DNA of 60,450 nt, the filler included, from Hausera hauseri (Eukaryota): the NCBI GenBank assembly GCA_046269625.1. It is 11 parts of 11 records of this genome, joined end to end, with 100 filler letters (N's around TTAATTAATTAA, not from the genome) between each part and the next. Parts side by side here need not be neighbours in the genome. Positions count along the whole stretch, not along the records: positions 1 to 5,101 come from JBJURY010335048.1; 10 more parts are not named here. One strand, written 5' to 3'. The notes below the pieces were generated by a model. It was given only the letters and a program-made list of their open reading frames with translations. It ran no database searches and was not told where the DNA came from. Of this stretch, positions 1 through 60,450 are shown piece by piece. Positions within the stretch are counted from its first letter, which is position 1, and each line of letters opens with the position of its first letter. The position numbers and the translations under genes were made by a program.

Positions 1-558
1 TTTTCGGTAGAATAAGTCATTTTGTTTATGCATGATGGAATTATTTTACGCGATCATTTGTCACAGAACTCCTATATAAGCAGTGATTTTATTTGCCAAA
101 ACAGAACAAAAATTGATTTCCATCTTATGAAATGAGTTCACGTAAGCATAATATTGTTGATCTATACGTTTGATTGTTGAATTATTTTATTTTTTTAATA
201 TTATTTTTATTGAGTAATAATACGTATTTGATAAGAGTTCTCGTTGTGGTTTATCAAGTAATATAAATAATTAAGTAATTTCATAATTAACGTGGATAAA
301 TTCTTCGTCCAGGTTAAAACTACCTGAGGGAAGCCAAAATAATTTCTAAATAAAGTATAGGATATTAATCAGTAAGTGAGTAAGTGAGTAATTGACATCG
401 GTGTAATTACTTTCCTTGTAACATATTACTTTCGTACAGCTAGGTAAGAACTACCATAATCTATCCCAGGAATAAAAGAAAGAATTGTTCTACTCATTAA
501 TTGACAAAGGCACGATTTTAATTGTAGTTATAAGGATTACATTAGTGAGTACTGAACA
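1..558 (+). repeat. 5' LTR (5'-truncated) of Gypsy-type element A
   Basis: AT-rich non-coding stretch with TATATAAG near 73. It ends in ...CTGAACA (558), 3 nt before a PBS and upstream of gag. Confidence 0.6.
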
Positions 559-561
559 AAC

Positions 562-574
562 TGGTGCCGTGACC
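562..574 (+). promoter_or_regulatory. Primer-binding site complementary to tRNA-His 3' end
   Basis: TGGTGCCGTGAC is the reverse complement of the conserved tRNA-His end GTCACGGCA-CCA, positioned between the LTR CA and gag. Confidence 0.85.
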
Positions 575-708
575 CCGGAGCAATTTAATTAATAGGCCCT
601 TAGATTACCGGTAGCAAGATAACGACAAGAAAAGGATCAGTGTACCAACCAGAATAAAACGTACCCTTTGGATTAGAGTATATACGAAATTTAAGCGAAG
701 AAGAACCC

Positions 709-1974
709 ATGTCAAACCACAATGTGGAGCAGGTTATTTAGTCAAAGGCGGACTTCACCTTACCCACAAAGAAGTTTTCAGGAAAAGAAGATATACAAGA
801 TTTCATGATGGAATACGAGGTATATTCCAAAAGTTTTGGCTGGGACGACAAGCAAAGAATGGAAAGATTACCACTTCATTTAAAAGTAACGGCTCTCATG
901 ATCTATTTCCAAATGCCCGAGGAAGACAGGAAGGACTGGAAAGGGATTAAAGAAAAGCTGTCTCAAAAGTTTCTGATAGATCCCTCAAGAAAAGGGAGAA
1001 TCGAAGAATTTATAAGAAGGAGGCAACGTAAAGACGAAACAGTCCAGGACTTTGTCTGCACATAGGAGAAACTTGCAGCGAGAGCATATCTTGACGTTAC
1101 GATACAAAACAATGCATTGTTAACCCAGTTTCAATACGGATTAGAGGAAAGATTAAGGACGATAATCTCACAAGCAGACCCACGTACCTTTCAGAAAGCA
1201 ATAAGAAAGTCGCGAAAAGCCGAACGGGATGCGGAATTGCATAGGTGGAATAAGTCTAAAAGTAATAATAATAGCTACGATAAAAGAAGAAAAAACAGTA
1301 CGCAAAAATATCAACGTTATGAAAGAAATAGAAACCCCTCACAAACGTCAGCCACCGAAGCTGAATCAGATGGAGAAAAGAAAGTGAGATTCAATTTACG
1401 GAACGATGGAGAAAAAGCAAGTTAAAAGAAGAAATATAAGAAAGATGGAAGATCTCTACCGAATATAGATTCCGAAGGAAGATTAAAATGTTTTAATTGC
1501 AATAAATGTGGACATATAGCTAAATCATGTAGATCACGTAAAAGGGACTCCTCAAAACCAAGTAATAAGAGTAAGAAAATGAAGGATAATGTATCAGCTA
1601 CGTTGGACGAATCATCCGACAGAGAATACGAAAAGGAGGATAGTGCTAGTGAACAAAAAGTTAAAAAGAAAGATAAGAAGAAAGAAAGTACTAACTATAT
1701 AAATGATTCACTACCCCCACATATGAAGAATCAATTAGAAATAGAAATGAAGGAGTATAAAAGACAACAACAAAGGTTGAAAGAAAGTAATATCTACATG
1801 GTAGGAGATCAACCGGAGAAACAGACATCTCGTAAAGGAAGAAAGAAAAGTAATAAGAAAATAATCGACATAGATGTCGAGTTAAGAGAGACGTCGACAG
1901 AAAGGGAAGAAGTAGGAAAGGGAAAAAGAAGAGGAAGAAAGAAGAGTAATCTCAGTACACCTTCCCTTAGTTAG
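709..1974 (+). pseudogene. gag: Ty3/Gypsy gag with CCHC zinc knuckle, interrupted by in-frame stops
   Basis: Single frame: PTKKFSGKEDIQDF..GWDD..L, RRQRKDETVQDF, QFQYGL and knuckle CFNCNKCGHIAKSC (1489-1530). Stops at 739, 1063 and 1423. Confidence 0.85.
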
Positions 1975-3233
1975 GAGGAAACCGAAGCTTCACCAATTTT
2001 CGATGCTACGATATTGGACCAAGTAATAAGGAATCCTGGGGTAGACTTAGACGAAGAAGATGATATTATAGAAGCTGTAATGATCATTGATCCCAATAAT
2101 ATAGTTGACGTAGACAAAACAACCACGACGATATTAAAAATAATTACCAGCAATATAACGGCGGAAAGAATAAAGGAAATTTTACCTCAATTGGTATTAT
2201 TAGCCCAAGATATCAGTCATGTGAAAGAGATAGCCAGAACGGTTTTAGCCAAAGCGGCTGAAGAAGAGAAAAGAAGAAATGAAGCTATCAGGGTAACGAT
2301 AAAAGAAGGAAATCAAGATATGAGGGTCATCCGGATGAACGAAATCGATGACATACAAACATTAAGAGAAAGGATATAGGAGCTGGAACCATTTTATCAA
2401 GGCAGTCCTTATGGATTAAGTTATTGCGGCAGAACAGTAAATGGTTACGATAGACTACTGAAAATTGGATGCAGAAGTGAGAAGTATAATCCGATAAATA
2501 TAACTGAAATACATCCAGAGGTAAGAGCGCAAGCAACAGTGGAAGATATCATAAGAGAACTAGAACGGTTGGAAGTAGAAAACCCCATGGGTGGTACACA
2601 AGACGTCACGGTCCAAACGGAAGCCAAGAGAAGAGGCAGGCCAAGAGGAACGAAAATAAGCGATATTCGCAACAGAAAACATAAAAATGAAGAAATAGTA
2701 AGACGTTTATTACTAGCAGGAACAGATGGTACTCCCGAATCGGTGGACATAGATCTATTATTAAGAACGTTATTGGCTAAGATGCATACATCATTTGCCT
2801 CGTTTGACATGCAAGCAATAATCCCAGATGAAGTATTCAATACATTAAGTAATAGTATGCTCCGAATAAACAGACAATTTTATGAGAATCTGGAGGAAGA
2901 AAGGATAAACGAGCTACACGAATTAGATATTCTGGAAAAAATGCTTGCTTCAGGATTTACACGAGAAAAAGCTCAAACGGCTATATTTTATTTATTATAT
3001 AAGATAATAGTAATTAACCATCAGACCCAAATTTAGAGAAGATCGAACTAAATATCAAGACAGTCGTGAAGATTTTGAAAGATACTTTGGGAAATTGGGC
3101 TCAATGTAGATGTGGCTGGCTGAACAATTTGATGACTAATGTGACGATGACAGAAGAACGAGAAAGAATAATAAATAGACCAGTTAGAACCCAACCAACC
3201 ACTACCAGATCGGGTATAACAGGCACGTCAATA
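1975..3233 (+). pseudogene. Unknown ORF2 between gag and env, with AT-hook-like KRRGRPRG
   Basis: Same frame as gag to 3036 with one stop (2377), then an apparent shift into the env frame (LEKIELNIKTVVKILK...). No protease, RT, RNase H or integrase motif seen. Confidence 0.55.
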
Positions 3234-4931
3234 ATGGAGATTATACAAATTTTATTGATAACATCATTGCTGATGCCAAAAGCCGTAGGTATAGTGGCGT
3301 ATAATTGCTCTAAACCCAGTGAGGGACAAAAGTATTCTCTAGATGACTTAGAAAAATGCATAAATGCTGATCCAGAACAGTTAATAACTACTAGTGGCCT
3401 TACATATTGGGTGTACCAAGAGTCCGAATTCATAAAAACAAAAATTAGGGAATGTTACGTGAAAAGATCGTTCTTTCTATTTTATTGTAACTACTATTCG
3501 GGAAATTCGGCCATAATTGAGCCTACAACGCCTTTTGAGCCCATAATAATATCTCGAGCAGAGTGTCAAGATGCTTTTAAGATTGGCATTATAACTATAC
3601 AAAATGCACACATACCGGCAGTGAGGAATAGAATAAAGTACAAAGGGATTTTCAGAGCGAGAAGGATAGACAAAACAATGGAAGGAACCTGTAAAGGAGT
3701 GGATTATGATGTCGGAGGTACCATTGCGCCTAGAACAGTAGCCATAGAAGATTATCAGGTACAACTGGAAGAATATGAAGGATTATTTGATTCTCAGACA
3801 AAGTTAATGACAACTTTGAGTGACTGCGAATACGACAATGGTGAATGTGATACAGGAGAGTCAAAAATGACATGGGAGACTCTAGCAAGTAAATGCCAAT
3901 TGACACTGTTAAAGGAAGGCAAGTTTAACAAGACAGTGGGAAAGACAGGGGAAAAAGAAACGGCGATGTATAAAGAAGGAACAAAGGAAGTCAAGATGAC
4001 AGAAGTAGCTACAATTGTATACTCAGGAAATCCCGAAGGAATGATGAGATTTAAAGTTACGGGCGTGACAAATAAGTGTGGAGAAGAAATATCCAAGACC
4101 AATTATAAAGGTATCTTCATATCGAGAAAAGAAATACCCGGAGCGAAAACGAAAATAGAAAAAAAGGATATCAAGTTGACCCAATATTTCGATAACAAGA
4201 TCGATTTTCTGATTAATTACATAAGAAAGGAAATTAGGGATTTATATCGGGAGATTATAATGAACGAATGCAAGCTGAACTATGAAATAATGCGTAATAA
4301 AATGGCATTGGTGATAACAAACCCGGATATGATAACGCCAATACTACCCTTCGGTGATGGAGTTATTGGAAGAGTGATGGGAGAGGTTTTGATAACAATA
4401 GAATGTAAGAAGGTAAAAGTAGCAATCAGACCCACGAAAGAATGCACAATGGACCTACCTGTCGTTTACCAATCAGAAGCACGGTATGTTACGCCAGTGA
4501 CAAGAATACTTCTCGATGTTAACATAAAACCCACTTCACTCTACAATTGTACTTTTAATATGTCACCAATGTTCAAAATTGATAATGATAAATGGATAAG
4601 GATGCCGAAAAGAGAACCAGTGTCGAAACCGGAGACATTAAGTTTGATTAACTTACAAAGGAATCATAAGTTCGAGTCATTAACAGGAATATCACAGGAA
4701 GGAATTTATACCCAACAAAATTTGGAAGATTATAGACGGATGTTGTTATTTCCACAGCAAGGACAGCCAGTAATAACCGAATTAACGCGGAGAGTAATGT
4801 GGGACGGTGAAGGGTCCCCACAGTGGAAAAACCTGATGGGCAAGGACTATCAAAAGAAAGTAACACAAAACGTGATGGGAAAAATGTGGGGAAGGTTCCT
4901 ATATTACGGAATACAGCTTTTGGGTTTCTAG
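3234..4931 (+). CDS. env: Chuvirus (Jingchuvirales)-like envelope glycoprotein; TM region disrupted
   Basis: Signal peptide MEIIQILLITSLLMPKAVG followed by IVAYNC. Cys-rich ectodomain. Block YFDNKIDFL..LY....ECKL..GEVL...C..V.V.IR...C..DLPV....YVTPVTRIL resembles chuviral G/EVE proteins. Open to 4931. Confidence 0.8.
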   Translation: MEIIQILLITSLLMPKAVGIVAYNCSKPSEGQKYSLDDLEKCINADPEQLITTSGLTYWVYQESEFIKTKIRECYVKRSFFLFYCNYYSGNSAIIEPTTPFEPIIISRAECQDAFKIGIITIQNAHIPAVRNRIKYKGIFRARRIDKTMEGTCKGVDYDVGGTIAPRTVAIEDYQVQLEEYEGLFDSQTKLMTTLSDCEYDNGECDTGESKMTWETLASKCQLTLLKEGKFNKTVGKTGEKETAMYKEGTKEVKMTEVATIVYSGNPEGMMRFKVTGVTNKCGEEISKTNYKGIFISRKEIPGAKTKIEKKDIKLTQYFDNKIDFLINYIRKEIRDLYREIIMNECKLNYEIMRNKMALVITNPDMITPILPFGDGVIGRVMGEVLITIECKKVKVAIRPTKECTMDLPVVYQSEARYVTPVTRILLDVNIKPTSLYNCTFNMSPMFKIDNDKWIRMPKREPVSKPETLSLINLQRNHKFESLTGISQEGIYTQQNLEDYRRMLLFPQQGQPVITELTRRVMWDGEGSPQWKNLMGKDYQKKVTQNVMGKMWGRFLYYGIQLLGF

Positions 4932-4937
4932 CTATAT

Positions 4938-5101
4938 AGTAGGGGGAAAATGGCGGTTCTGGCCCACGCCGGGGGGGGTGTAATCGATAAATCGATTTCG
5001 CACATGTGCCGATCGATGGTGCACACTGTGCCTTATCGATCCATAAAGTGCCTAGCAACGGTGCCGCTAGGCACTGTTGCTAAGGGCACTTTTGCACTTT
5101 T
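4938..5101 (+). mobile_element. Maverick/Polinton-type terminal inverted repeat inserted at the end of env
   Basis: Starts AGTAGGGGGAAAATGGCGG. Homologous to the reverse complement of 20665-20828. AG-start termini are typical of Polintons. Confidence 0.6.
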
Positions 5102-18255: not shown

Positions 18256-19135
18256 TGTAACAGTATTTTGCACTTGTTCAAATCTTTCCCATTGTTTAGA
18301 AATTTTGAATTTTTACAATGTGAGGAGAACTGAAATTCTAAATTTAAATTAGAAACATTTTTAAATTTTAAAAATTCGATCATGAATTTAAATTAAAAAT
18401 GTAACATTAAAAGTATAATTTAATTTTGGAATTTTTGAAAAATTTGTTTCAAAATGAGTATTTTGAGATACAATAACATTTTCAACAATTGGTGTTAACT
18501 TTTCAATGAGTAACTACAAACGATCCAATTCCGCTTCTGCGGACATACCAGGAGGCGTGAATTTTCCAAACCTACCCAAGTTCGGCGACGAGGTGGACGG
18601 CGTGGATGCGTCCGCGGCCAACATGGCGACTTACGCCATAATGGGCATTTTCGCAAATCAAATGGTGCCCAACAAATTCAGGAAAGGCGACGACGTGGAG
18701 AAGTTCATTAAAGGATGTGAAACATTCTTTAAATATATGGACACCCCGGCGGCGAAGCGGGAAATCATGATTGAATGCCTCTTGGAGGAAGAAGCACAAG
18801 AAAGATACAAGGCAGTAGATGAGAAAATAATTTCATATCAAAACCGACTACGGAAGGCTTTCGCCCGATCCTCAACGATGTGCGAAGATCCGAAAGAGGC
18901 GCTCGAGTACAGAATAAATAGAGCGGAACCGGAGGCTTACTTCAAGTCAATAGAAATCGATGAGATCATCCGAAACCTATGGGAAAACGACATTATCAAG
19001 CCATGTAACTCAACATTTAATACACCAATGATATGCGTAATGGAAGAAAGACAAGAAAAATGTCAGAATATGCCTGGACTTCAGACAGCTAAATCTTAAA
19101 ACGGAACGGCAAGCCTTCCTCATGCCTAACAAAAT
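18256..19135 (+). mobile_element. Gypsy element (family K): 5' LTR 18256-18487, gag start, deletion fusing gag to RT
   Basis: TGTAACA...TTCAACA then TGG. gag MSNYKRS..PNKFRKGDDVEKFIKGCE joined to IDEIIRNLWENDIIKPCNS.FNTPMICV. Homologous to 57213-59110. Confidence 0.85.
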
Positions 19136-20194: not shown

Positions 20195-20315
20195 TGTGAG
20201 GAGAAATTTAAACGAATATTAATGTTTAAATTCAATTCAAAGTTAAATCAATAAACAGCCAATATAAAGTCAGGAAATTCAAAAAAGGATGGTAGAAACG
20301 CGATCCACTAACAGT
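20195..20315 (+). repeat. TG-starting terminal repeat shared with 44296-44530
   Basis: TGTGAGGAGAAATTTAA...GTAGAAACGCGATC. Carries a ~115-bp deletion relative to the 44296 copy. Confidence 0.8.
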
Positions 20316-20319
20316 GTCC

Positions 20320-20828
20320 ATTCAATTTAACATTGATTTTTGATACCTTAGTGTAGAAAAACCTATGGGCATTCTCCACCACCTGACCTTCGAATAGATA
20401 TTATTCGAAAATAACCCAACAGATTTAAATTCTAATTGCACATTCGTATAGAGAATCTTTTTTCACATTGAATACACCCGGTTACATGCGCTAATCAACA
20501 ATATTGGAATTATTGGAAATCCGATATTATTGATTTACACACACTTGCACATGTGCAGTGCACATGCACAGTGCAGAGATCGATGCATCTTGATGAGCAC
20601 TATCAATCAATGCTTTGTGCTAATCGATTTGATCAATACTGTAATGTGCAACGATCGATTTGTGGAATGTGTAAAAGTGTGCATAGCAATGATGCCTAAT
20701 GGCACCGTCGCCATGAATGTGTTGATGGATAGTGCACCGGGTGTATTATCGATTATCACATGTGCCGTATATGTTTATCGTTTACCCTTCCTCCGGGGGT
20801 GAAACAAAACCGTCATTTTCCTCCTACT
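20320..20828 (-). mobile_element. Maverick-type terminal repeat (~500 bp)
   Basis: Ends ...TTTTCCTCCTACT. Homologous to 4938-5101 and to 25480-25850. Confidence 0.65.
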
Positions 20829-24323: not shown

Positions 24324-24695
24324 TTCTCCAGTGGAAAATGCCGAATAATGGGATATAAGAAGCCCATTGATCCGTGTAGTTTGCCCTACAATATATCAAT
24401 TGTGGGAATACAATCAGTTACAGTTACATGCGATTTTTGCAAGCCAATAGATCTAAATACATTGGCTCAGAAAAATCCAAGGTGTCTCTATGAGCCAAAA
24501 TTATTTCCGGCACTAAGATTAACTTCTTATAATCCCCTATGCGTAAATGTGTTTCATACGGGTAAAACTGTTATTACCCGTTTAAAGGATTTAAATTATA
24601 ATGATTTTGTTAGTTATGTTCTAGATAATATATTATTATCGACTTATGACTCTTCAAAAAGTAACACGTATACAAAAACAACTATAATAACATAA
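24324..24695 (+). CDS. Divergent TATA-binding-protein-like protein (5'-truncated by scaffold start)
   Basis: Frame open from 24324: FSSGKCRIMG (end of repeat 1), then CD....IDLNTLA....CLYEPKLFPAL.......VNVFHTGKTVIT, compared with TBP YEPELFPGL..LIFVSGKVVLTG. Confidence 0.8.
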   Translation, partial: FSSGKCRIMGYKKPIDPCSLPYNISIVGIQSVTVTCDFCKPIDLNTLAQKNPRCLYEPKLFPALRLTSYNPLCVNVFHTGKTVITRLKDLNYNDFVSYVLDNILLSTYDSSKSNTYTKTTIIT

Positions 24696-24957: not shown

Positions 24958-25479
24958 GTTCTATACTTAGCAATAGTTTATACACCAAATTTTAATGCGC
25001 TTTTGTTTTAATGCATCAATTAAAGTCAATATATGGCGACGCCAAATTTAATGTTCTCAACCATGGGGAATCGAATGGTGTCATTAGATTCTTCGAATAA
25101 TGCATGCTTGACCGAGTTTTCGAGTTCGAGTAGCTAAGTATTCGACTTGTAAGCTCGAATTCAAGTATCTCATGCCATATTCCGATTCGGCATACATGAC
25201 TTCCTATCGCGCCCCGCTTATAGATTTATCGATTTCCGCTTCACTGGGCTTTAAATGCACATTTTGCTTAATTCGAAATATTGATTTTGTACCTATATAT
25301 CACATTTTCATTGAATAACTTTAATGCATAAGAGGGTATTCGGACATGGCAAATCGATTGCCGTTGTTAGATTTTTCGAAACGTTCGATATTTGAGCCAA
25401 AAAGTTTTCGAATTTCGAATATTCGACTCGATATTCGAGATATCCATACTCGAGTTCCTATCTGTCCCCGCTAAATGTT

Positions 25480-25850
25480 ATATCAAATTTTGACTCCTTA
25501 GGACCTAAAAATACTATGGGAAGTCTGCGCCAGTTGCACTTTGGATCGATATTATTCAAAATCCACTCGATCGATTTAAAATTTAATTGCACATTCACAT
25601 AGTGCACCGTATTTCCAATCGATTGCATCCAGTCACATGTGCTAATCATCAATATTGGAAGTACCGGAAAACCGATATTATTGATTTTTGAACACTTAGA
25701 CATGTGCTCCGCATCTGCACAGTGCATAACAAGATGCATCTCTACATGTTCTATCCATTAGCACTTGCCAGACCGATTCCATCAATCCTAGATCGTACAG
25801 CTACCAAAATGTGAAACGTGTAAAAGTGCCATGGCAACAGTGCCCAAGGG
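25480..25850 (-). mobile_element. Maverick-type subterminal repeat (outermost ~120 bp missing)
   Basis: Aligns with 20335-20705, e.g. ATATTGGAA..CCGATATTATTGATTT and GTGTAAAAGTG. Confidence 0.65.
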
Positions 25851-27290: not shown

Positions 27291-27459
27291 AAGTTCAAAT
27301 GTCAAGTGAATGTAACCAAATAAATTCCAAAACATAATTTTCATTAGAAGAGGAATTAAACAATTTCAGAATTCAGCTTTTGGTTTTATTGAAAACGAAC
27401 GTAAACCATAGAATAATCTGGTAAAAGCGTGCAAACAATTCCCCATTGAGAATCGGAAA

Positions 27460-27830
27460 TTGGAATATTTTGAAATTTCCGATAAGTACGGGCCCATCGT
27501 TAAAAATTACACCACAAAATTACGGAATGTAGTCACAAGTGTCAGCAGTGAGGAGGTAAAGGTGTTGCTTATTGGACAATACAATGTCGGTAAATCAACG
27601 ATCATCAAAGCCATGCTTAGTAACAGATTGGTCACCGTGTACAATGGGACGACAACCAGTTGCTTCGTTGGTATTCAGCAGTCTCAGAAACTGGAAGTGT
27701 TACGGCAATGAGGAGGAAGTGTTCAACAAAGTGGGAGGGAGTGAATTGGAATTTATTAGAATGCAAAGGAATCGTAATATTTGCCCAGGTATGTTTGTAT
27801 TTATGAATCAATGTGACAAATTGACGGCGA
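27460..27830 (+). pseudogene. Dynamin-superfamily (mitofusin-like) GTPase fragment
   Basis: P-loop KVLLIGQYNVGKSTIIKAML...GTTTSCF and later G4-like FVFMNQCDKL. Internal deletion and frameshift. Confidence 0.65.
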
Positions 27831-38227: not shown

Positions 38228-39452
38228 CTTAGTTGGTATTGCTCATGATTTTCAATAAATTATTAGTTGGTTTTGGATTATCCGAATGATCATGTGGGTT
38301 GTATGGAGGGATCTACTATCTAGACCGGATCAAGATCACTTTATGCTGTCTTGTCTCATATTCTGGTCGTTTTTCGTACAATGCTCGGCTCAAACATTTG
38401 TTGTTGGTACAGATCCCTGGTGACTGTTTGACCAGGTTTAAGTATCTCATAATATATCACACCCTTCTAGTCCCACCAAATACAGAACGTGGCCTTCTTC
38501 CCATAAATATTTCGTTTTGGCGTCAATGTTAATGGTTGACCTGGGTCGCAAATGGTTTCTCGGCGTTTGGGGTTCTTTGTCTGTCACAATTCGATGCAAA
38601 AGCCCCCTTTCTTTTTCGGAGACGGTTTTTCGCCTTTGGGTGTCTTTTTTTCAGCTCATATGGCACCCATCTTGCTTTCCTTGTATACATTTCCCATATT
38701 TTACGGGAATTGCACCTCACAATAGCATTTGTGCGTTTGATATCATCGCAAGGAGGGACAAAAACGTCTAATTTGCATGCGTCGAATTGGTTTTAAGAGA
38801 GGGTGGATTTATTCGAATGATGATGTGACTGAAAAATTGAATAAAAGATCTCGTTCACATGGGTTGGGTCGGGGTTTGCCTGGGATAGGAAGAATGAACG
38901 AGGGGACAACATGATAATAGTCGATAAACAGTATCGTCGTAAGAAGTCATGGGAAGGACTGTTTAGTAAACTTCACGAAAGTCAGTTGAACCCCACGATT
39001 TTACGATCAGCGATCCGAATGCCATTAGACAAAGGAGGTTGCGGGGAAGCCCCTATAGACCGCGGAATGTCGGAAGTGGATAACCGTTCAGGTGAGAGTT
39101 ATCATACATTTCAAAAAAGATACAAAAGTACATTTGCATAATACTACAAAATTTCCTGCACAATTACTTTCCCAAGAATATACACGAAATATTTGCAACT
39201 CTTCGTAATATACACGCACACACAGTCTACCCATTAGTAATTGGTAGTTTCATTCCAACATTATCGGATATTGATTAACTCATGCAAAATGTGAGGGGTT
39301 CATGGAATGCGTCCATTTTGCCTCAGTTAGTAATTATAAATTGCCAAATGATGATATTGAGACAATATCGATCAATTATCTACATATATATATTTTCTAT
39401 TCCATTATATATCCAGTCCATATTTGAATCAACGATCAAACCCAATTACTAT

Positions 39453-40751
39453 ATGTACTCATCATATCGTAATGTACAGAATTGCCAGAACAACAGTTCA
39501 GTCCAGTTGCCTCAATCCACAATCCCAACACCAAATTTCACAAACAACGACATTAAACAACTGGATGATGACGTATCAAACATGGAATCACTTTCTCTGG
39601 AACTTCAGAGAATCCCACGAAACAAGATCAAAGCATTTAAAGTCTTCCGAAATTCAACATTCAAACTTGTTCGTCGGGATCATCTAAATTCAGAGGTATT
39701 ATGCCTGTCCAATTATTGTCTGGAATTAACTCGACCGTACTCCTCAAAGGGAGTCATTAAGTACAACAATTTATTACTCAACCAAACGAGTAAGGCTCTT
39801 ATACTCCAAAAAATTGCGCAATTAACAACCAACAGTGCGCGATGTTCAAAATCATTTGTTCGGTTGATCCCCCATCCGATCTTTGATGAGGAAGTTTTTA
39901 AATCAGAACTAAAAGACATTTCAAAAGATGTTTATCAGATTAAATGTATAGAGAACTGGAGTAATTTACCATTTCTACCACACATAACTAATTTTACCAG
40001 TTTACAGGATTTTGATGAGTATGAAATATTCTTAGAAAACAACTTGAGACAATTGAGGAGGATGAAGAGATTATCAAATGCCATCCAGATTTTACACGAG
40101 AACTCTCGGAACTTACCACAGATTAAGAACAACAACAACAATATTGATATCGATGAGCCCGACTCGGATGAGTCCGATGAAGATCTAATCCCGGTGATCA
40201 AGGAAATCGAAATCGATCCTGATATTCCAGAGAAATTCGTTCACACCGTCATCCGACAGGCCCAAAATGAAATCACCGCAAGTCCCTGCAATGATTATTC
40301 ATCCACCAATCAAGATATAACGTTCATCACCGAGCTAACATCAAATCGAGACAGTGATCGTGTGGATCTATCAAAGACTGTCAATCTTAAGACTAGTTTC
40401 TCTGAATCCAAACCGATTGTCCTGAACGTTTATGAAGTCCTTATTGAAGAGAAGGAAAGCACATCAACTGAAAGCACGAAAAAGCCAATCAGTTGTCAAG
40501 AAGGACCAAATGATTACATTCCACTCTATTTCAAAGCCAGCTGTGGTACGAAACTGAAGTTTAAAGTCCGATACTACAGCCGACTTTACCAGGCAATCAA
40601 AGCGTTCTGTGAAAGAATGGGCATACAGATTATATCGGAATTTCAATTTACGGCACCATCAGGGGAGACTGTGACAAATGGCGATACGCCCCAGAGTCTA
40701 CAGTTGAAACCCTACGACATTATCACCGTGTCCAATATCCTCCAAGGTTAA
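39453..40751 (+). CDS. Protein with C-terminal SUMO-like domain (Rad60/Esc2/NIP45-like)
   Basis: Long open frame with an acidic stretch. C-terminus KFKVR..SRL.....AFCERMG.....F....G..V...DTPQSLQL...DIITV resembles SUMO/SLD2. No di-Gly. Start codon uncertain. Confidence 0.7.
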   Translation: MYSSYRNVQNCQNNSSVQLPQSTIPTPNFTNNDIKQLDDDVSNMESLSLELQRIPRNKIKAFKVFRNSTFKLVRRDHLNSEVLCLSNYCLELTRPYSSKGVIKYNNLLLNQTSKALILQKIAQLTTNSARCSKSFVRLIPHPIFDEEVFKSELKDISKDVYQIKCIENWSNLPFLPHITNFTSLQDFDEYEIFLENNLRQLRRMKRLSNAIQILHENSRNLPQIKNNNNNIDIDEPDSDESDEDLIPVIKEIEIDPDIPEKFVHTVIRQAQNEITASPCNDYSSTNQDITFITELTSNRDSDRVDLSKTVNLKTSFSESKPIVLNVYEVLIEEKESTSTESTKKPISCQEGPNDYIPLYFKASCGTKLKFKVRYYSRLYQAIKAFCERMGIQIISEFQFTAPSGETVTNGDTPQSLQLKPYDIITVSNILQG

Positions 40752-49729: not shown

Positions 49730-52700
49730 GTAACCACATCCTAGGCACTACACTGTCACCAGCGTTAATTCACTCGACAAAATCACTTCATTTAACACCT
49801 TTACAATTCTACCATTCTGCACCAAATACCAATTGACTTTACATCAGCAAACAATTCACAAATTGCATCTGCTACTACTCAAGCTGTTTCACCATCATCA
49901 CCGAATCCCTCACAGTTGCCTACAACTTTGCAGCAATTCGTCAACACATCATGTTCACGAGTACTTAAAAAAGATCGTACGTTTACTCCTGCAAACAGTA
50001 CTTTACACCACATAGTTACACAGCATGAACGACCAATACGCCAAAAGGTACGACCACTGTTATCTCGTCGTAGGCAGGCCGTAGAAGCCGAATTTCTTGA
50101 AGTAGAACGTTCCGGCATCGTACGCCGTTACAAATTTCCTTGGTAGTCACCTTTACATGTTGTACTAAAAATGGCGGCATTTTTAGACCATGTGGTGACT
50201 CCCGACAGTTGAACAATTTGACTATCATGGATGCGTACCCCCTGCCACTCATCAAGGATATATTGTATTGCTTTAATTCAACCGCAATTTATTCGACCAT
50301 CGATTTGACCAAAGAATATCACCAAATACCGGTGGCACCCGAAGACATAGAAAAAAACTGCTGTCACCACTCCTTTTGGTCTCTACGAATACGTGTTTAT
50401 GGTATTCGGTTTGCGAAATGCCGCACAAACATTTGAGCGGAACATCGATTCAATTCTCTCAGATTTCCCGTTTGCGCACCCTTACATTGATTATATTCTG
50501 ACCGTTTCGTCTTCAGCCAAACAACACGAGGAACAAATCCGCGCAATAGTCCAACGCCTCAACCACCATAATCTCCAAGTCAATTTTGTCAAATGCCATT
50601 TCTTCGTAAAGCGCATCAACTTTTTGGGCCACGTTATTCCACCAGATGGCCACTCTCCCCAACCAGACCAAGTTGAAGCCCTTAAGAATATCCAGCTACC
50701 ACATACGACCACTGAAACGCAAAGCTTCCTTGGTACGCTACACTTTGTACATAAATATGTTCCATATTGTTCTGATATTATAGCACCATTTGCACACTTA
50801 AGTGGCGGCAAAAAAAATTTGATAAGCTACGCGAAGGAATTAAGACTGTCGACATTTTCGCTTTCTCCAAGCCTGACGAGGAATTTATCCTTACCACAGA
50901 CGCTTCAACCACTGCGGTAGGTGCTCTGCTTCACCAAATCTACAAGGGAGAAAATAAACCGCTAACTTTTTCTCTCGTAATCTAACATCCCCTGAAACTA
51001 GATATTCAACGTCCGATCAAAAATTATTAGCCATCGTTCTCGCTTTAAAGCATTTCTACCACCTACTTGTCGCTTGCCATTTTACCATACATACAGATCA
51101 CAAAACCTTACTTAACATCATGACTATGAAACATCCTTCCACACGCCAAGAACGACACATATCATATTTGTCGACATTTAACTTCGACATAAGATATATC
51201 AGTGGAGTTAATAATTTGGTTGCCGATTTTTTATCTACGCCGGTTAGTTCGATTAATTTTTACGCAAGCTCAACTTTATCAGAACCAGTTACCTCAGGAC
51301 ATGCTTAAGTCTTTCAAGTCTTGCACAATTGTTGAAGGCGTGGCTTTAGACACCTCCAAACCAGGTCATTCCGTAATAATTCTTGCACATCGTTGCAAAA
51401 GCAAGCATTTAACAATGTACATTCGCTGCACCACCCCGGTGCTAAAGCTACTTTTCGTTTACTCCACCGACAAGTAGTTTGGCCATCAATACGTTCCGAT
51501 GTACATGCATGGGTTAAGGAATGTGTGGCTTGCCAAAAATACAAAATAACTAAGCATTTAAAACCACCGTTTCAAATCCGTGCATGTTGACATCGTCGGC
51601 CGTCTTCCTCCAGACAACGATCACCAATTCATTCTCACCATGATGGACCGTTCCTCGCGATGGCCAGAAGTCATCCCTCTGCGGAGCACAAATACCGACA
51701 CTATAGCTGACGTTTTCATTCGTACATGGATTAGCAGGTTTAGATCACCTCGCTCAATCATCACGGACCAAGGTCCACAGTTTGAATCCAACTTGTTCAA
51801 ATTCATTGCTAACCGATCTGGATCCATCACATACATACTAAGCCTTACCATCCCAATCGAATGGCCTTTTAGAGAGTTTCCACCGAACAGTGAAAACGTC
51901 ACTAAGAATCCAAGCAGAGTCCAACGGTAGTTTGACGAACCTTCTTCCCTTTGTTCTGCTTGGCTTGCGAACACTTTATCTACTTCTACAGGATGCTTAC
52001 CTACTGAAGCCTTATTCGGAGCCCCTGTACAATTATTATTCGAACTAACTGCTCTAGACGACAACCCTAAAGATGAAGCGATACGAGCGGCTCAAAATCA
52101 CTTTTTACGGTCAGCAGGGATTCATTCTGCAGGTTAATTCACAAAAACAAAACATATTTATCCGAAGACTTGTATTCGGCAAAATTCGTATAGCTAAAAA
52201 ATCAAACGTCGTGCGGTTTCCATCCGCGGTATCTGGGGATATATAAACGGCTATAGCTGCATTCGCACAACTCTATTATCTCTAAAGACGGCAAGGAACT
52301 TACAGTACATATTACCAACTTAAAGCCCGCCTTCTTTGTCGACGACACTTTACCAATCGACACATAAACCTCTTTTCTCACTCCTACACTTTCTACTACT
52401 CCTATATCCATTGCTACATATGTTCCACCTTCTCCTTCTGCTCCTAGTTTTAGTTCATTATTTTCCGCACATTCTATTTCCATTCCTATCTCTCCCCTTA
52501 TCTCCACCACTACCTCTGTTTCATTTTCTACCTCTACCCTTTCGCCTAATTCAATTCAAATTCCTACTCCTATTTCCGTCTCTCCTTCTCCATCCGTCAC
52601 TACGTCCTCTACAAATCCCTCATCTTCTGAAATTCTCTTGAACACCTTCTTTTATCCACCTTCAACAATCTGTCTTCCTCCTTCACTTTCTTTTTCTCTT

Positions 52701-53339: not shown

Positions 53340-54285
53340 AGGAATTATTCAAGGATTTCAAAGTGACAACCGATGCGGCATTTAACTTGAACAGGGCGAA
53401 TTTTAATTACCGTGTCCAGGAGAAATTTAAACTGAAGAAAGCGGAAACTACAGATTTATCAGAAAATCAAGAGCTGGAATTATTCTCTAATGCTTGCCAG
53501 GAAACCGTTGAGGAGTACGTTTCTGCGGTCGCCCCATGTTTCTCTCAGGAAATCTGGGATGATTTCAATTCATCTTTCTATACCACTTCCTGGCTGCTTC
53601 TGACTAGCGATTTAAATGTTCCGAATGCCGCCTACAAACGGCAAGAAACTTATTTACGTTCACAGATTCGACAATGGGAAAACGATCAGGGCATGAATTC
53701 ATTCAAACGACAGAAAAAAGTGGATCGGTTTAATACTTTGACTGAGCGATTGAAAGAGGAACAGAAACGAAGTGAACAGTACGTGAAAATAGTGGATTAT
53801 TGGCTGAATGCGGTGAAATCGAAATGGTTGTGAAAACGCGAGATGAATCAGAAAAAGCCATTGTGATGACCCGCTTCATTGAGTTGTGCATGTCTCCACG
53901 TGTCCGTTTTTTATCGAATAATGCCTTGTTCGTTGACCTCCAAATTACACCGAATAAAGTAGTTATCATTTTCTGCGCTAATTTGTTTGGATAGAATTTT
54001 CAACGACATTACTTTGATGATCACTGCATGTAGCGAAAACGAAGCCAGACGATATGGTCGATTCTTAGATTCAATGTTAACACTGACAATAAAATGGCAC
54101 TCGTCAAGAGAAGTATTCAACGATGAATGCATTACCCACCCGGGATAGCAATAACAAAGCCGATCAGTTAACGTACGAAAACTACCGACACGTACTTCAC
54201 AAATGGCATTATCGCGTTACGAAATCAATCGTTGCCTGCTTTGAATCGGAAAATTACGTTCAAATTCGAAATTTGTTAATTGTGT
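53340..54285 (+). pseudogene. THOC2: THO complex subunit 2 fragment
   Basis: WDD....[46 protein letters not shown]....C.E..NY..IRN.LIV. Frameshifts. Confidence 0.88.
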
Positions 54286-54899: not shown

Positions 54900-55600
54900 T
54901 AAAATAAAGCCCCGACTGGCTACACTTCTGAGGCTCTGCCTTTAGGGTTGTCGACTCTGTGATAGATTCTTCATAATCTTCATAAATATTAAAACGTATA
55001 GATGCATGCTGTTCAACCCTTCTCTACATATTTTCTGACCATACTCCATCCTTTTGAAATTGTCGTATACGTATTTAGTTCTCTTCTTCTCTTGTCCAAT
55101 TTTCTATAATATTCTTCTTCCCTGTGCCCTCTATTATGACATCTATTGCGTTTTATGTTTATGCAGTTTCGTCTTAGGTGTCCTTGCTGACCGCACCCAT
55201 AGCATATTATAAGTTTCCTTTCCGGGCAATTCCTGTTAATGTGACCTTCTTTTCCGCCACCAAAACATCTTGGTACTTGTTGTAGGTTGCATGTCCGGCT
55301 TGTATGCCCGTCTTTCTCTATTTTCTCTTTGATTTCTTCGACGCCTTTTCGGCAATGCGGTAGACTTCCTTTCTCATCTCTGGATTGGCGCATCAGTGGA
55401 TCATCAATTCTTTTGTTAGCGTTTCCAGTGTTAGAGAATGCTCTTCGACAGCTGTCCAATTTTGTTGAAGTAGGCGTCCGGTTCTGTCCCCCCCCCTCAT
55501 TATGTAGTTCAAGGCCTCATGCATATCTTCGCACAGCGTTGTGGGTTTTGAAAATGCTTTTCGCAACCGGTTTTGATACCCTTTTACCTTCTGGCTCACC
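54900..55600 (-). mobile_element. Gypsy family-K gag fragment
   Basis: YQNRLRKAFSK, CYGCGQQGHLRRNC. Homologous to 57600-58340. Confidence 0.8.
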
Positions 55601-57212: not shown

Positions 57213-60200
57213 TGTGACATTTTTTCGCACTTGTTCAAGTCTTTCCTCGCCACGTTTAGGAATTTTGAACTTTAACAATGTGAGGATATAATCGAGACAT
57301 GAAATTCTAAAATTAAATTAGTATTTGGAGAAACAATAAAATTTTCAACAATTGGTCTCACTTTGCAATGAGTAATTACAAACGATCAAATTCTGCTTTA
57401 GCGAACATACCAGGGGGGGCGGGGATTTTCCAACCCATAATAGACATTTTCACGAACCAGTTGTTCCCAAACAAATTCAGGAAAGGCGACGACGTGGAGA
57501 GGTTCATTAAGGGATGTGAAAATTCTTTAAATATATGAACACTCCGCGTCGAAGCGAAAAATCATGGTTGAATGCCTCTTGGAGGAAGAAGCACTAGAAA
57601 GATACGAGGCAGTAGATGGAAGGATAACAGGATATCAAAACCAACTACGGAAGGCTTTCGCCCGATCCTCAACGCTGGGCCAAGATCTGAAAGAGGCGCT
57701 CGAGTACAGAATGAATGGAGCGAAACCGGAGGCTTACTTCGAGGCAATCGCGAAACTTCTGGATTAAGTCATGAAGCACAATCTTTCACGCGAGGCTCTG
57801 AAAAAGGAACTATTGTTCCAATGTTGTAACAATAGAGAGATGAGAAGAGAGATATGCTTCAGTGACAAACGAGACGCGGAAACAATAAAGGAGAAAATAC
57901 GGAAGATACATGAGGTAAAGATTAAGAAGTCAACACGGTTAAGGAGTATCCGGGAGTCGGTATAAGAAGCTACCAGGAAGTGGCAGCACAAAATATCAGG
58001 AAACCCTTTCTTAGAATCAAGACGACGCCAACTAGACCGCCAAATGGTGGATTAAAGTGTTGGACATGCCAGAAGGAGAGACATATGAGCAGAAATTGCA
58101 CCACACGAAGATCGATTAAATGTTTTGGATGCAGAAAAGAAGGACACGTACGCGGGCAGTGTCCAGAAAGAAAGCCAGTAAGATGCTACGGATGTGGTCA
58201 GCTAGGGCACATCAGACGAAATTGTACAAACCTTAGCTGTGCAAGATGTCACCATAGGGAACATACCGAAAAGGAATGCTACACCAGATTGGAGGGGGAA
58301 AGGAACCGGGATGGAATATATACAACGTCAAAAGAAGGTACAAGGATAATCTGAACAGCAGACGGGGGGGAAGTCGCAAATGTAGAAGAAGAAGAAACAG
58401 AATCGGAACAGGAGTCATTTGCCCCAAAAGGCAGCTCCTCGATAGAAGTGGAGAAAATCGGAGCACTACAATAGATGCAGTCCACACTACGATGTGCGAA
58501 CGATAGCCCCTTAGATAGCTTGGGCACACTGACAACAGACGTAGAAATCAAGGGTCTAAGGAGACGTGTGACATTCCTGGTAATGTCGGAATTACGGCCA
58601 GAAATAATAGGTGGTATGGAACTGCAAAAGGCATTTAAAATAGAACTGGAGTGGAAACGCACGGAAACGGAAACATTACAGCAAGATATATGCAATCTGG
58701 AAGCCAAGTTCGGCTGTAAGGTGACTAACCAAGAATGAGTCAAACAGGGCGAAGGAAGCTCTTCAGGTGAGTAACAACAAAGAGCTACTCAACATTATAC
58801 AGAAATACCCAGATGTATTCATGGCCGACATGTGGGACATAGGGTGCACATCTCTTATAAAACACCAAATAGACACGACAGGAGCGCCAATTAGTATCAA
58901 ACCTCACAGGCAACCAGTAAACCTAGAAAAAATATCGACGAGACCATCTGAAACCTATGGGAAAACGACATTATCAAGCCATGTAACTCTGCATGGAATA
59001 CAACAATGATATGCGTATGGGAAAAAGACAAGAACGATGTCAGAATATGCCTTGACTTTAGACAGCTGAATCTTATAACGGAACGGCAGGTCTTCTCCAT
59101 GCCTAACGTGGTAGAGATATTGGACATGTTATACGGGACCAAATTTTTCACGTCAATCGACCTAGGGAATACATACTACCAAGTCGAGCTAGAGGAAGAC
59201 CCCAAACTGAAGACGGCGTTTTCAATGAAATTGGGGCAGTTCTGTTTTAACAGGATACCATTCGGTATAGCAGCAGCTCCGGGCATCTTCCAAAAAATAA
59301 TGAATCAAGTACTAGGGGACATTTAATAAACAGTGGTATACCTAGATGACATACTAATCTTTTCTGAGATTCTAGAAGAGCATTATAGGATACTAGAAAA
59401 GGTATTTCAGCGGATAAGGGAAGCAGGTCTCAGAGTAAGCTCAGAAAAATGTCATACCCTAAAGAAAGAAATAAAATTTTAGGGCACATGGCGAATGACA
59501 AGGGAATACAGACAGACCCATCAAAACTGGGAGCAATTAAGTCCTTTGAGAAACCAAAATGTGTCAAGAATTTGAGAAGCTTCTTAGGGATCTTCAACTA
59601 TTACAGAAGATTTATCCAGGGTTACGCAGCAAAGGCCAAGACTTTGGAGCAACTATGCGGTTTGAATAACAAAAAACTAATACGGACCGAGCAATGTAAC
59701 GAGGCTTTCAAGTCAATGAAAGAGCCTTAGCCATACCCCCAATACTAGGTTTTCCTGATTTCAACAGAGAATTTATCCTCCATACGGACGCAAGCTTCGA
59801 CACAATTGGAGCGGTACTGCCACAGAAGGATACTTTGGGACGCGAGAGAGTGATTGCATACGGATCATACGCAATGAACAACCATGAAAAAGGTTAGTGT
59901 ATAACTCGAAAGGATCTACTGGCCATGTATTATTTCTGTCAACATTTCAAGCATCACCCATACGGGAAACGGTTCACATTGAGAACGGACCACAAGGCAA
60001 TAACGTTCATGGTAAAGACAAAAAAACGATAACGGCCCAATTTCAGACGTGGATCAATTACCTAGCCAGTCTAGACATCAACCTGGAGTACAGAAAAGGC
60101 ACAGATCACGCGAACGCAGATATGCTATCTCGCACGAGTTGCGAAACATGCAGAGAATGTCTACAACAACATAACGACGCTAAAGTGCAGAAAAGCAAGA

Positions 60201-60450
60201 CTCGGCGGATAAACGTCGTAGAAACAGCAGAAACATACAAATACCGGAAGGACATCAAAGAAATCGAAGAAATAAAAGAAAGCATTGCCCGAAGAAAGCA
60301 AGAAAGATTTATACTAGAAGATGGAATAATAAAAACACGAACAGGTAAGATTTGGATACCAACGAACAGACGGGTAGAAATGATAACGCATAACCATGTC
60401 ATGCTGTCCCACGCAGGATCAGAAAAGGTAACAAAATACATTGACAGTAA
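57213..60450 (+). mobile_element. Gypsy element (family K): shortened 5' LTR 57213-57350, gag with four CCHC knuckles, RT, RNase H, start of integrase
   Basis: CWTC/CFGC/CYGC/CARC knuckles, RICLDFRQLN, PFGIAAAPG, YLDD, TDASF, RTDHKA, HANADMLSR. Stops and frameshifts. Confidence 0.93.

Follow-up and report, generated by a model that had tools for sequence, protein, structure and literature searches.

In the excerpts of PMC6431247, the planarian element Burro/GYPSM1 is described as carrying gag, a Ubi2/SUMO-like domain, a BCL2-like domain, an envelope glycoprotein gene (env) and then protease (PR) in one open reading frame (ORF). Its env matches the glycoproteins of arthropod and fish mononegaviruses, and is presented there as the first env to lie in frame between the two genes gag and pol. 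The same excerpts give Burro a total length exceeding 30 kb, of which the internal region takes up to 25 kb, with long terminal repeats (LTRs) of kilobases, report decayed Burro fragments with stops and frameshifts in Dugesia japonica, and state that host tinkering by the accessory domains still awaits experimental confirmation. BURRO1 is expressed upon SMEDWI-2 loss, according to an extract of PMC8532177. PMC13524379 describes GAG-ENV-POL 'errantiviruses' of Platyhelminthes, of a herpes simplex virus glycoprotein B (HSV/gB) type and in a configuration termed C1a. The accessible portion of PMC10084718 (2023) describes Anakin, mosquito BEL/Pao elements with a chuviral glycoprotein, and reports no clear Gypsy capture in insects. 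Here we compare with these systems an element from Hausera hauseri (GCA_046269625.1), found in a stretch of 60,450 nucleotides (the window) that consists of 11 short contigs separated by N-linkers; the element occupies the contig at 1-5101. It is very probably the dead 5' half of a Burro-like Ty3/Gypsy element with the order gag, ubiquitin-like (Ubl), probable Bcl-2-like, env, pol, and its pol is likely absent only through a cut. This cut, at the membrane anchor of env, is likely the combined result of another repeat and the end of the contig.

An earlier note on this DNA had reported no pol motif between gag, the sequence following it (ORF2) and env. This absence was borne out, in that no PR, reverse transcriptase (RT), RNase H (RH) or integrase (IN) motif was found in the six frames of 1-5101, and the pol domains of 15 relatives gave no match to this contig by tblastn. 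The relatives themselves indicate where pol would be expected. A phmmer search with the window env against 1.84 billion representatives gave 1010 matches at E <= 0.001, the best 150 of which were listed. Most of the 17 top-ranked env relatives (all at E 4.5e-45 or lower) were long ORFs; 15 of the 17 were scanned with Pfam, the env-only fragments P0012 and P0014 being left out. Pol domains followed env at E <= 1e-3 in 10 of the 15; five of these ten carried RT and RNase H, and four of the five carried integrase as well. An eleventh relative (P0011) contained a weak protease match after env (E 0.0018), and in the other four the sequence stops either inside env or no more than about 70 residues past the last motif in common. 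None of the 15 carried a pol domain upstream of env. The pol domains were Gypsy-type (RT_RNaseH, Integrase_H2C2), no BEL/Pao domain being found in the 15 scanned top relatives. Six lower-ranked matches that were also scanned had env alone. A metagenome scan, with at least 593 pattern matches, yielded four loci (L001-L004). In L001, L002 and L004, the ORF that holds env goes on to encode PR-RT-RH-IN, and L003 ends within env; L002 is a complete gag-Ubl-env-pol frame of 3703 codons that runs from gag to integrase. Since pol follows env within one ORF in the relatives, the gag-ORF2 junction would not be the expected site of pol in a lineage with the order gag-env-pol.

Remnants of gypsy pol at 50006-51810 and 58749-60184 were considered as the pol of this element and rejected, as they lie on other contigs and are 24-41% identical to the pol of the relatives. 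Decayed gypsy gag/pol fragments are found on separate contigs at 50006-51810, 55013-55516(-), 58749-60448 and 18467-19130. The relatives show some further features. Multiple aspartic-protease-like repeats occur per polyprotein in P0153, P0005, P0007, L001 and L002, with up to seven stretches (P0153). P0153, P0005, L001 and L002 have a long post-integrase tail that appears, by eye, to be membrane-anchored, and P0007 ends before RT. A separate downstream ORF at L001:10617-12107 and L002:12085-13473 encodes a DEDDh-type exonuclease (PF00929, E 1e-5 and 1e-3, respectively). P0009, a 2627-aa Burro-like polyprotein, is labelled at its source as a Flavobacteriaceae hypothetical protein and likely represents animal DNA in a bacterial bin.

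The gag region is of the Gypsy type. Its capsid matches Retrotrans_gag (E 3e-4) and Ty3_capsid (E 1.4e-3) in Pfam, both under the curated cut-offs, and a four-row gag profile matches the dArc2 capsid at E 6e-9 and also dArc1, PNMA2 and Arc. The CCHC knuckle lies at 1486-1533 (E 0.015). The capsid matches and the knuckle confirm the Gypsy gag of the earlier note. No BEL-type gag/pol domain (DUF1759, Peptidase_A17) was found in the window gag by Pfam, and the Gypsy-type gag, the Gypsy-type pol of the relatives and the lack of BEL/Pao domains uphold a Gypsy rather than a BEL/Pao affiliation. A single frame from ATG 709 through 3036 spans gag and ORF2, as had been claimed, but is not uninterrupted, having five internal stops at 739, 1063, 1423, 1972 and 2377. 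Upstream of gag, the CA at 557-558 is followed by a 3-nt gap and then by the primer-binding site at 562-573, whose every base is complementary to the 12-nt 3' end of tRNA-His(GUG) tabulated in PMC13524379 supplement 1, in agreement with the tRNA-His primer-binding site proposed earlier. The start of the 5' LTR presumably lies outside the contig, the LTR being assigned by its position before the primer-binding site. No second copy of this sequence was found within the window and no matching LTR pair was found, the contig ends having no similarity to each other. A tRNA-His-like gene was called by ARAGORN on the next contig at 6167-6251(-), and is possibly a tRNA-derived repeat.

ORF2 had been regarded as a separate protein of ~400 aa and of no recognised kind. 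It is instead colinear with part of a single-ORF relative: P0010 aligns with the window gag-ORF2 at 30% over 780 columns (E 3e-88) and runs on, in the same frame, into window env-frame sequence from about 3024. The ORF2 homology extends over the first 70 codons of the env frame, which is open from 3018. Because P0010 stays in one frame across this point, a frame change near 3018-3024 is attributed to the window copy. Judged by these alignments, ORF2 is the accessory part of a gag-env-pol polyprotein, containing a ubiquitin-like and a probable Bcl-2-like domain. A five-row profile of 2056-2511 with L001-L003 matched 78 PDB sequences at E <= 1; the best 60 of these were all ubiquitin-like (among them ISG15, UHRF1-Ubl and ubiquitin), with a best E of 0.002. 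The L003 homologue, folded from a 12-row alignment, gave a predicted local distance difference test score (pLDDT) of about 81-94 over its first 150 residues and matched ubiquitin-like folds with Z 12.6 and a root-mean-square deviation of 1.5 A over 76 residues. The ubiquitin-like assignment of 2281-2511 is thus a good one, based on the profile and on the predicted fold of the L003 homologue rather than that of the window copy. The domain lacks a terminal di-glycine, which makes a role as a conjugated or cleavable tag unlikely.

The small domain directly upstream is helical in the model of the L003 homologue (pLDDT about 81-93), and may resemble a TFIIS N-terminal-like bundle. Such a helical domain of about 70 residues precedes the ubiquitin-like domain in L002 and L003 as well as in the window, and the helical and ubiquitin-like pair is duplicated in L002 (1663-2100, 2374-2859). 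Elsewhere in the window, a 490-codon intronless frame at 39279-40751(+) ends in a SUMO-like domain (PF11976, E 0.017). The region 2740-3140 aligns with a helical region that closes in a W-x(4)-GGW-like motif; its profile matches Bcl-2 at E 0.03, below five designed helical proteins, and Pfam Bcl-2 matches occur in the relatives P0003 (E 9.6e-4) and P0010 (E 0.055). These matches suggest a probable Bcl-2-like domain just before env. The unbroken ORF2 pieces of the window itself had no ubiquitin or Bcl-2 match in Pfam, P0010 600-760 had no usable match in the Atlas, a whole-protein profile found nothing in PDB, and the gag-ORF2 region of P0010 as query recovered only P0010 itself among 7998 candidates. 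The fold-search lists were filled by the ubiquitin-like domain, so that the absence of the Bcl-2-like and helical domains from these lists is uninformative.

The env sequence from ATG 3234 matches PF24664 Monjiviricetes_fusion with E 1.2e-72 and 245 bits (cut-off 27), the match spanning model positions 4-549 of 653, which substantiates the earlier identification of a chuvirus-like glycoprotein. The hydrophobic stretch after 3234 is preceded by an in-frame ATG and had been taken for a leading signal peptide. Because the env frame upstream continues the ORF2 homology, this stretch is an internal signal of the polyprotein; the glycoprotein was correctly recognised, and the leading signal peptide was not. 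The window env ends 14 residues past a WGRF motif, which is followed by a hydrophobic helix (values of 1.8-2.5 in a 19-residue Kyte-Doolittle window) in 11 of the 15 relatives tested, the remaining four ending earlier or lacking a pattern match there; no transmembrane helix was found at the C-terminus of the window env, where the best hydropathy value was 0.66. We predict env to be a class III fusogen by analogy, the fold being taken from PMC13524379. By eye, all eight domain I-II cysteines of the window env match the Schmidtea rows of PMC13524379 supplement 2, and on this basis the host is likely a flatworm of the planarian type. A single-sequence AlphaFold model of the window env had a pLDDT of 31, too low for use, and HSV gB matched the window env by sequence only at E 0.8. 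Additional searches for env relatives found none among 5764 near-length protein candidates, two among 4133 when longer proteins were allowed, none among 46 pattern matches in genome contigs, and none among 75 in viral contigs.

We also examined the position of the window env in a tree of 52 of the 127 stretches that cover at least 400 query residues, 75 being left out. The rows comprised all 16 from ORFs of at least 990 aa, the window, three shorter top matches and the first 32 of the stand-alone proteins; P0008 and P0010 fell short of the required length. This was a quick IQ-TREE analysis with SH-aLRT support only and a midpoint root. The window env fell in an 11-row group (support 95) inside a 19-row group (94) to which every one of the 15 Gypsy-type long ORFs belongs. 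A branch with support of 99 separates this side of the tree from the BEL/Pao-borne P0155 and from 31 of the 32 stand-alone proteins, and the long-branch stand-alone protein P0138 fell on the polyprotein side. P0155 is the one BEL/Pao-type match (PF05380/PF03564/PF18701), and its env is 23% identical. The tree supports a placement of the chuvirus-like env of the window Gypsy element apart from that of P0155. The earlier proposal of a chuviral env in a Gypsy lineage thus holds for its carriage by Gypsy and its separation from the BEL/Pao-borne P0155; such elements are already found in PMC13524379 and in the excerpts of PMC6431247.

The 3' end of the element is abrupt. A repeat starts at 4938, seven bases after the end of env, and the contig ends 170 bases after env. 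A 71% identical copy starts at the equivalent base at 20828(-), and the flanks of the two are unrelated. This copy (20308-20828(-)) is about 520 bases long and matches a third copy at 25458-25850(-), the two being 69-71% identical to the 4938 repeat. The 20828(-) copy has no match to 1-561, and for the 4938 repeat neither a terminal inverted repeat nor a target duplication is clear. Fragments flanking the 20308-20828(-) copy may resemble a Polinton-type DNA polymerase; Pfam gave no match for them. From these alignments, the sequence from 4938 onward is likely a second element inserted in env, with the contig ending within that repeat. Whether this sequence is read as an inserted repeat or as a polypurine tract (PPT) followed by a 3' LTR, the loss of pol is damage to the window copy.

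Table 1. Features of the element on the contig at 1-5101 of the window.
Feature	Coordinates	Strand	Remarks
Putative 5' LTR, 3' part	1..558	+	AT-rich; AATAAA at 471; CA end
tRNA-His(GUG) primer-binding site	562..573	+	12/12 nt
Ty3/Gypsy gag	709..1533	+	Capsid about 754-1236; stops at 739, 1063, 1423
Charged low-complexity linker	1534..2055	+	Stop at 1972
Small helical domain, conserved	2056..2280	+	Alignment; directly before ubiquitin-like domain
Ubiquitin/SUMO-like domain	2281..2511	+	Stop at 2377; without terminal di-glycine
Bcl-2-like domain, probable	2740..3140	+	Split by frame change near 3018-3024
Chuvirus-like env	3234..4931	+	PF24664 match; frame open 3018 to 4931
Beginning of another dispersed repeat (PPT + 3' LTR less likely)	4938..5101	+	Contig ends inside

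Two public sequencing runs contained 24,255 and 2,358 records related to the element, with all 30 bins covered in both; most of these records are less than 95% identical to it. This shows, at the level of short records, that the gag-ORF2-env part belongs to a diverged multi-copy family. Run X1 may be the source sample. The related pieces are 200-400 bases long, so the sequence after env in other copies is not visible in them. Among the 15 joints listed, of 53, none skips more than 315 bases. Cover was 51 (run X1) and 0 (run X2) at 4906 and 340 at 3186, values not used as evidence; likewise not used was the cover of 417,884 in 4931-5100 versus 2,909-24,201 in the internal bins (run X1), these figures not being copy numbers. 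Fragments of host-type genes are also present in the window, these being a TBP-like fragment at 24324-24692 (E 6e-14), a dynamin-like GTPase fragment at 27412-27708 (E 4e-6) and a Tho2 fragment at 53342-53833 (E 1e-12).

Several observations weigh against interpretation of the element as the 5' half of a gag-env-pol retrotransposon. Pol is not seen in any sequence of the window copy or its own subfamily; among pol-bearing relatives, even the nearest reach no more than 35-38% identity in env, and the closer env relatives P0008 (73%) and P0010 (47%) are fragments. The Bcl-2-like assignment consists of weak matches and was not demonstrated by the fold search. All five stops lie outside env (P about 0.04-0.07), and at 4972-4984 a G-run followed by TGTAAT resembles a PPT and the start of an LTR. 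This last feature would fit a one-off internal deletion between the env anchor and the PPT, with 4979 onward being the element's own 3' LTR and the copy being pol-less and dead; the kilobase length of Burro LTRs given in the excerpts of PMC6431247 means that the contig ends need not overlap. However, the homology to the 20828(-) copy starts 41 bases before the TGT, at the point where both flanks become unrelated, and that copy lacks the TG and continues for a further 360 bases that are unlike 1-561. In addition, one contig joins 439 to 4945 on opposite strands, although this is weak evidence, coming from a single contig with a 39-base side. We consider such a deletion improbable.

The earlier note had proposed a non-autonomous enveloped satellite that supplies Gag and Env. 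Because gag contains stops and the env anchor is missing, the window copy can supply neither Gag nor an anchored Env, and with no LTR pair found either, this proposal is not supported for the window copy. Extended to a multi-copy family of gag-env satellites that borrow Pol in trans, the proposal would account for the lack of pol on the contig and for the thousands of divergent related records across all 30 bins of both runs, but an autonomous gag-env-pol family would be expected to give the same multi-copy signal. The broken gag and anchor-less env of the window copy, the position of pol after env in the relatives and the missing LTR pair also count against such a family, for which we see hardly any room. 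Slightly less remote, but still very unlikely, is a pol-less, Burro-like subfamily of many copies, ending at the env anchor and spreading with a helper Pol, whose product would be a secreted class III ectodomain preceded by ubiquitin-like and Bcl-2-like domains. Finally, the host might have co-opted the anchor-less env to be secreted, perhaps as a receptor blocker, during the decay of gag. The env frame has 0 stops in 637 codons versus 5 in gag-ORF2, the imbalance to which the P value above refers, and an in-frame ATG precedes the hydrophobic signal at 3234. Differences from other copies at codon positions 1+2, however, number 16 in env (8.4 per kb) versus 12 in gag-ORF2 (5.2 per kb), as counted in a rough test on the best-supported 40 of 1790 differences, a listing that favours conserved sites. 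Because these differences are no rarer in env than in gag-ORF2, co-option is unlikely, and we give it the least credence of all.

The working of the polyprotein can be proposed from the anatomy of intact relatives and from general knowledge of polyprotein topology. In intact relatives, an LTR-driven RNA would be translated into one Gag-Ubl-Bcl-2-like-Env-Pol polyprotein. Env would be directed by the internal signal into the lumen of the endoplasmic reticulum, and the transmembrane helix would bring the chain back to the cytosol, where PR-RT-RH-IN would be made. Signal peptidase and the element's own protease would release the parts of the polyprotein, and tRNA-His would prime reverse transcription. 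Env, as a predicted class III fusogen, would serve in cell-to-cell spread, and the Bcl-2-like domain may delay the death of the host cell. The window copy is capable of none of these steps.

The layout of this element has already been published, in the planarian Burro/GYPSM1 of the PMC6431247 excerpts and in the GAG-ENV-POL errantiviruses of PMC13524379. The present element extends the Burro-like gag-env-pol retrotransposons by one divergent family that is primed by tRNA-His. The locus also demonstrates a trap, in that pol follows env in this lineage and a 5' fragment therefore appears pol-less. The wider group is of interest for its elements, which encode a single polyprotein, bear an envelope gene and carry apoptosis and ubiquitin modules. 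The dead window copy makes the question of host tinkering no more testable than the published intact elements already do. As far as the excerpts of PMC6431247 go, the window copy shares with Burro/GYPSM1 a Gypsy gag with CCHC knuckle, a Ubi/SUMO-like domain, probably a BCL2-like domain, and a mononegavirus-like env, in the same order; it differs in having one knuckle rather than two to three, in a shorter pre-env part, and in that MATH, BIR and ankyrin domains are not matched in its 5 kb. With Anakin, as covered in the available part of PMC10084718, it shares an env of the same Pfam family on an LTR element, but the superfamily is another (BEL/Pao versus Gypsy). With the errantiviruses of PMC13524379 it shares the gene order and, by eye, the eight domain I-II cysteines and the motifs of six Schmidtea rows; those elements are intact and multi-copy with no primer-binding site called, whereas the window copy is broken and carries a tRNA-His primer-binding site.

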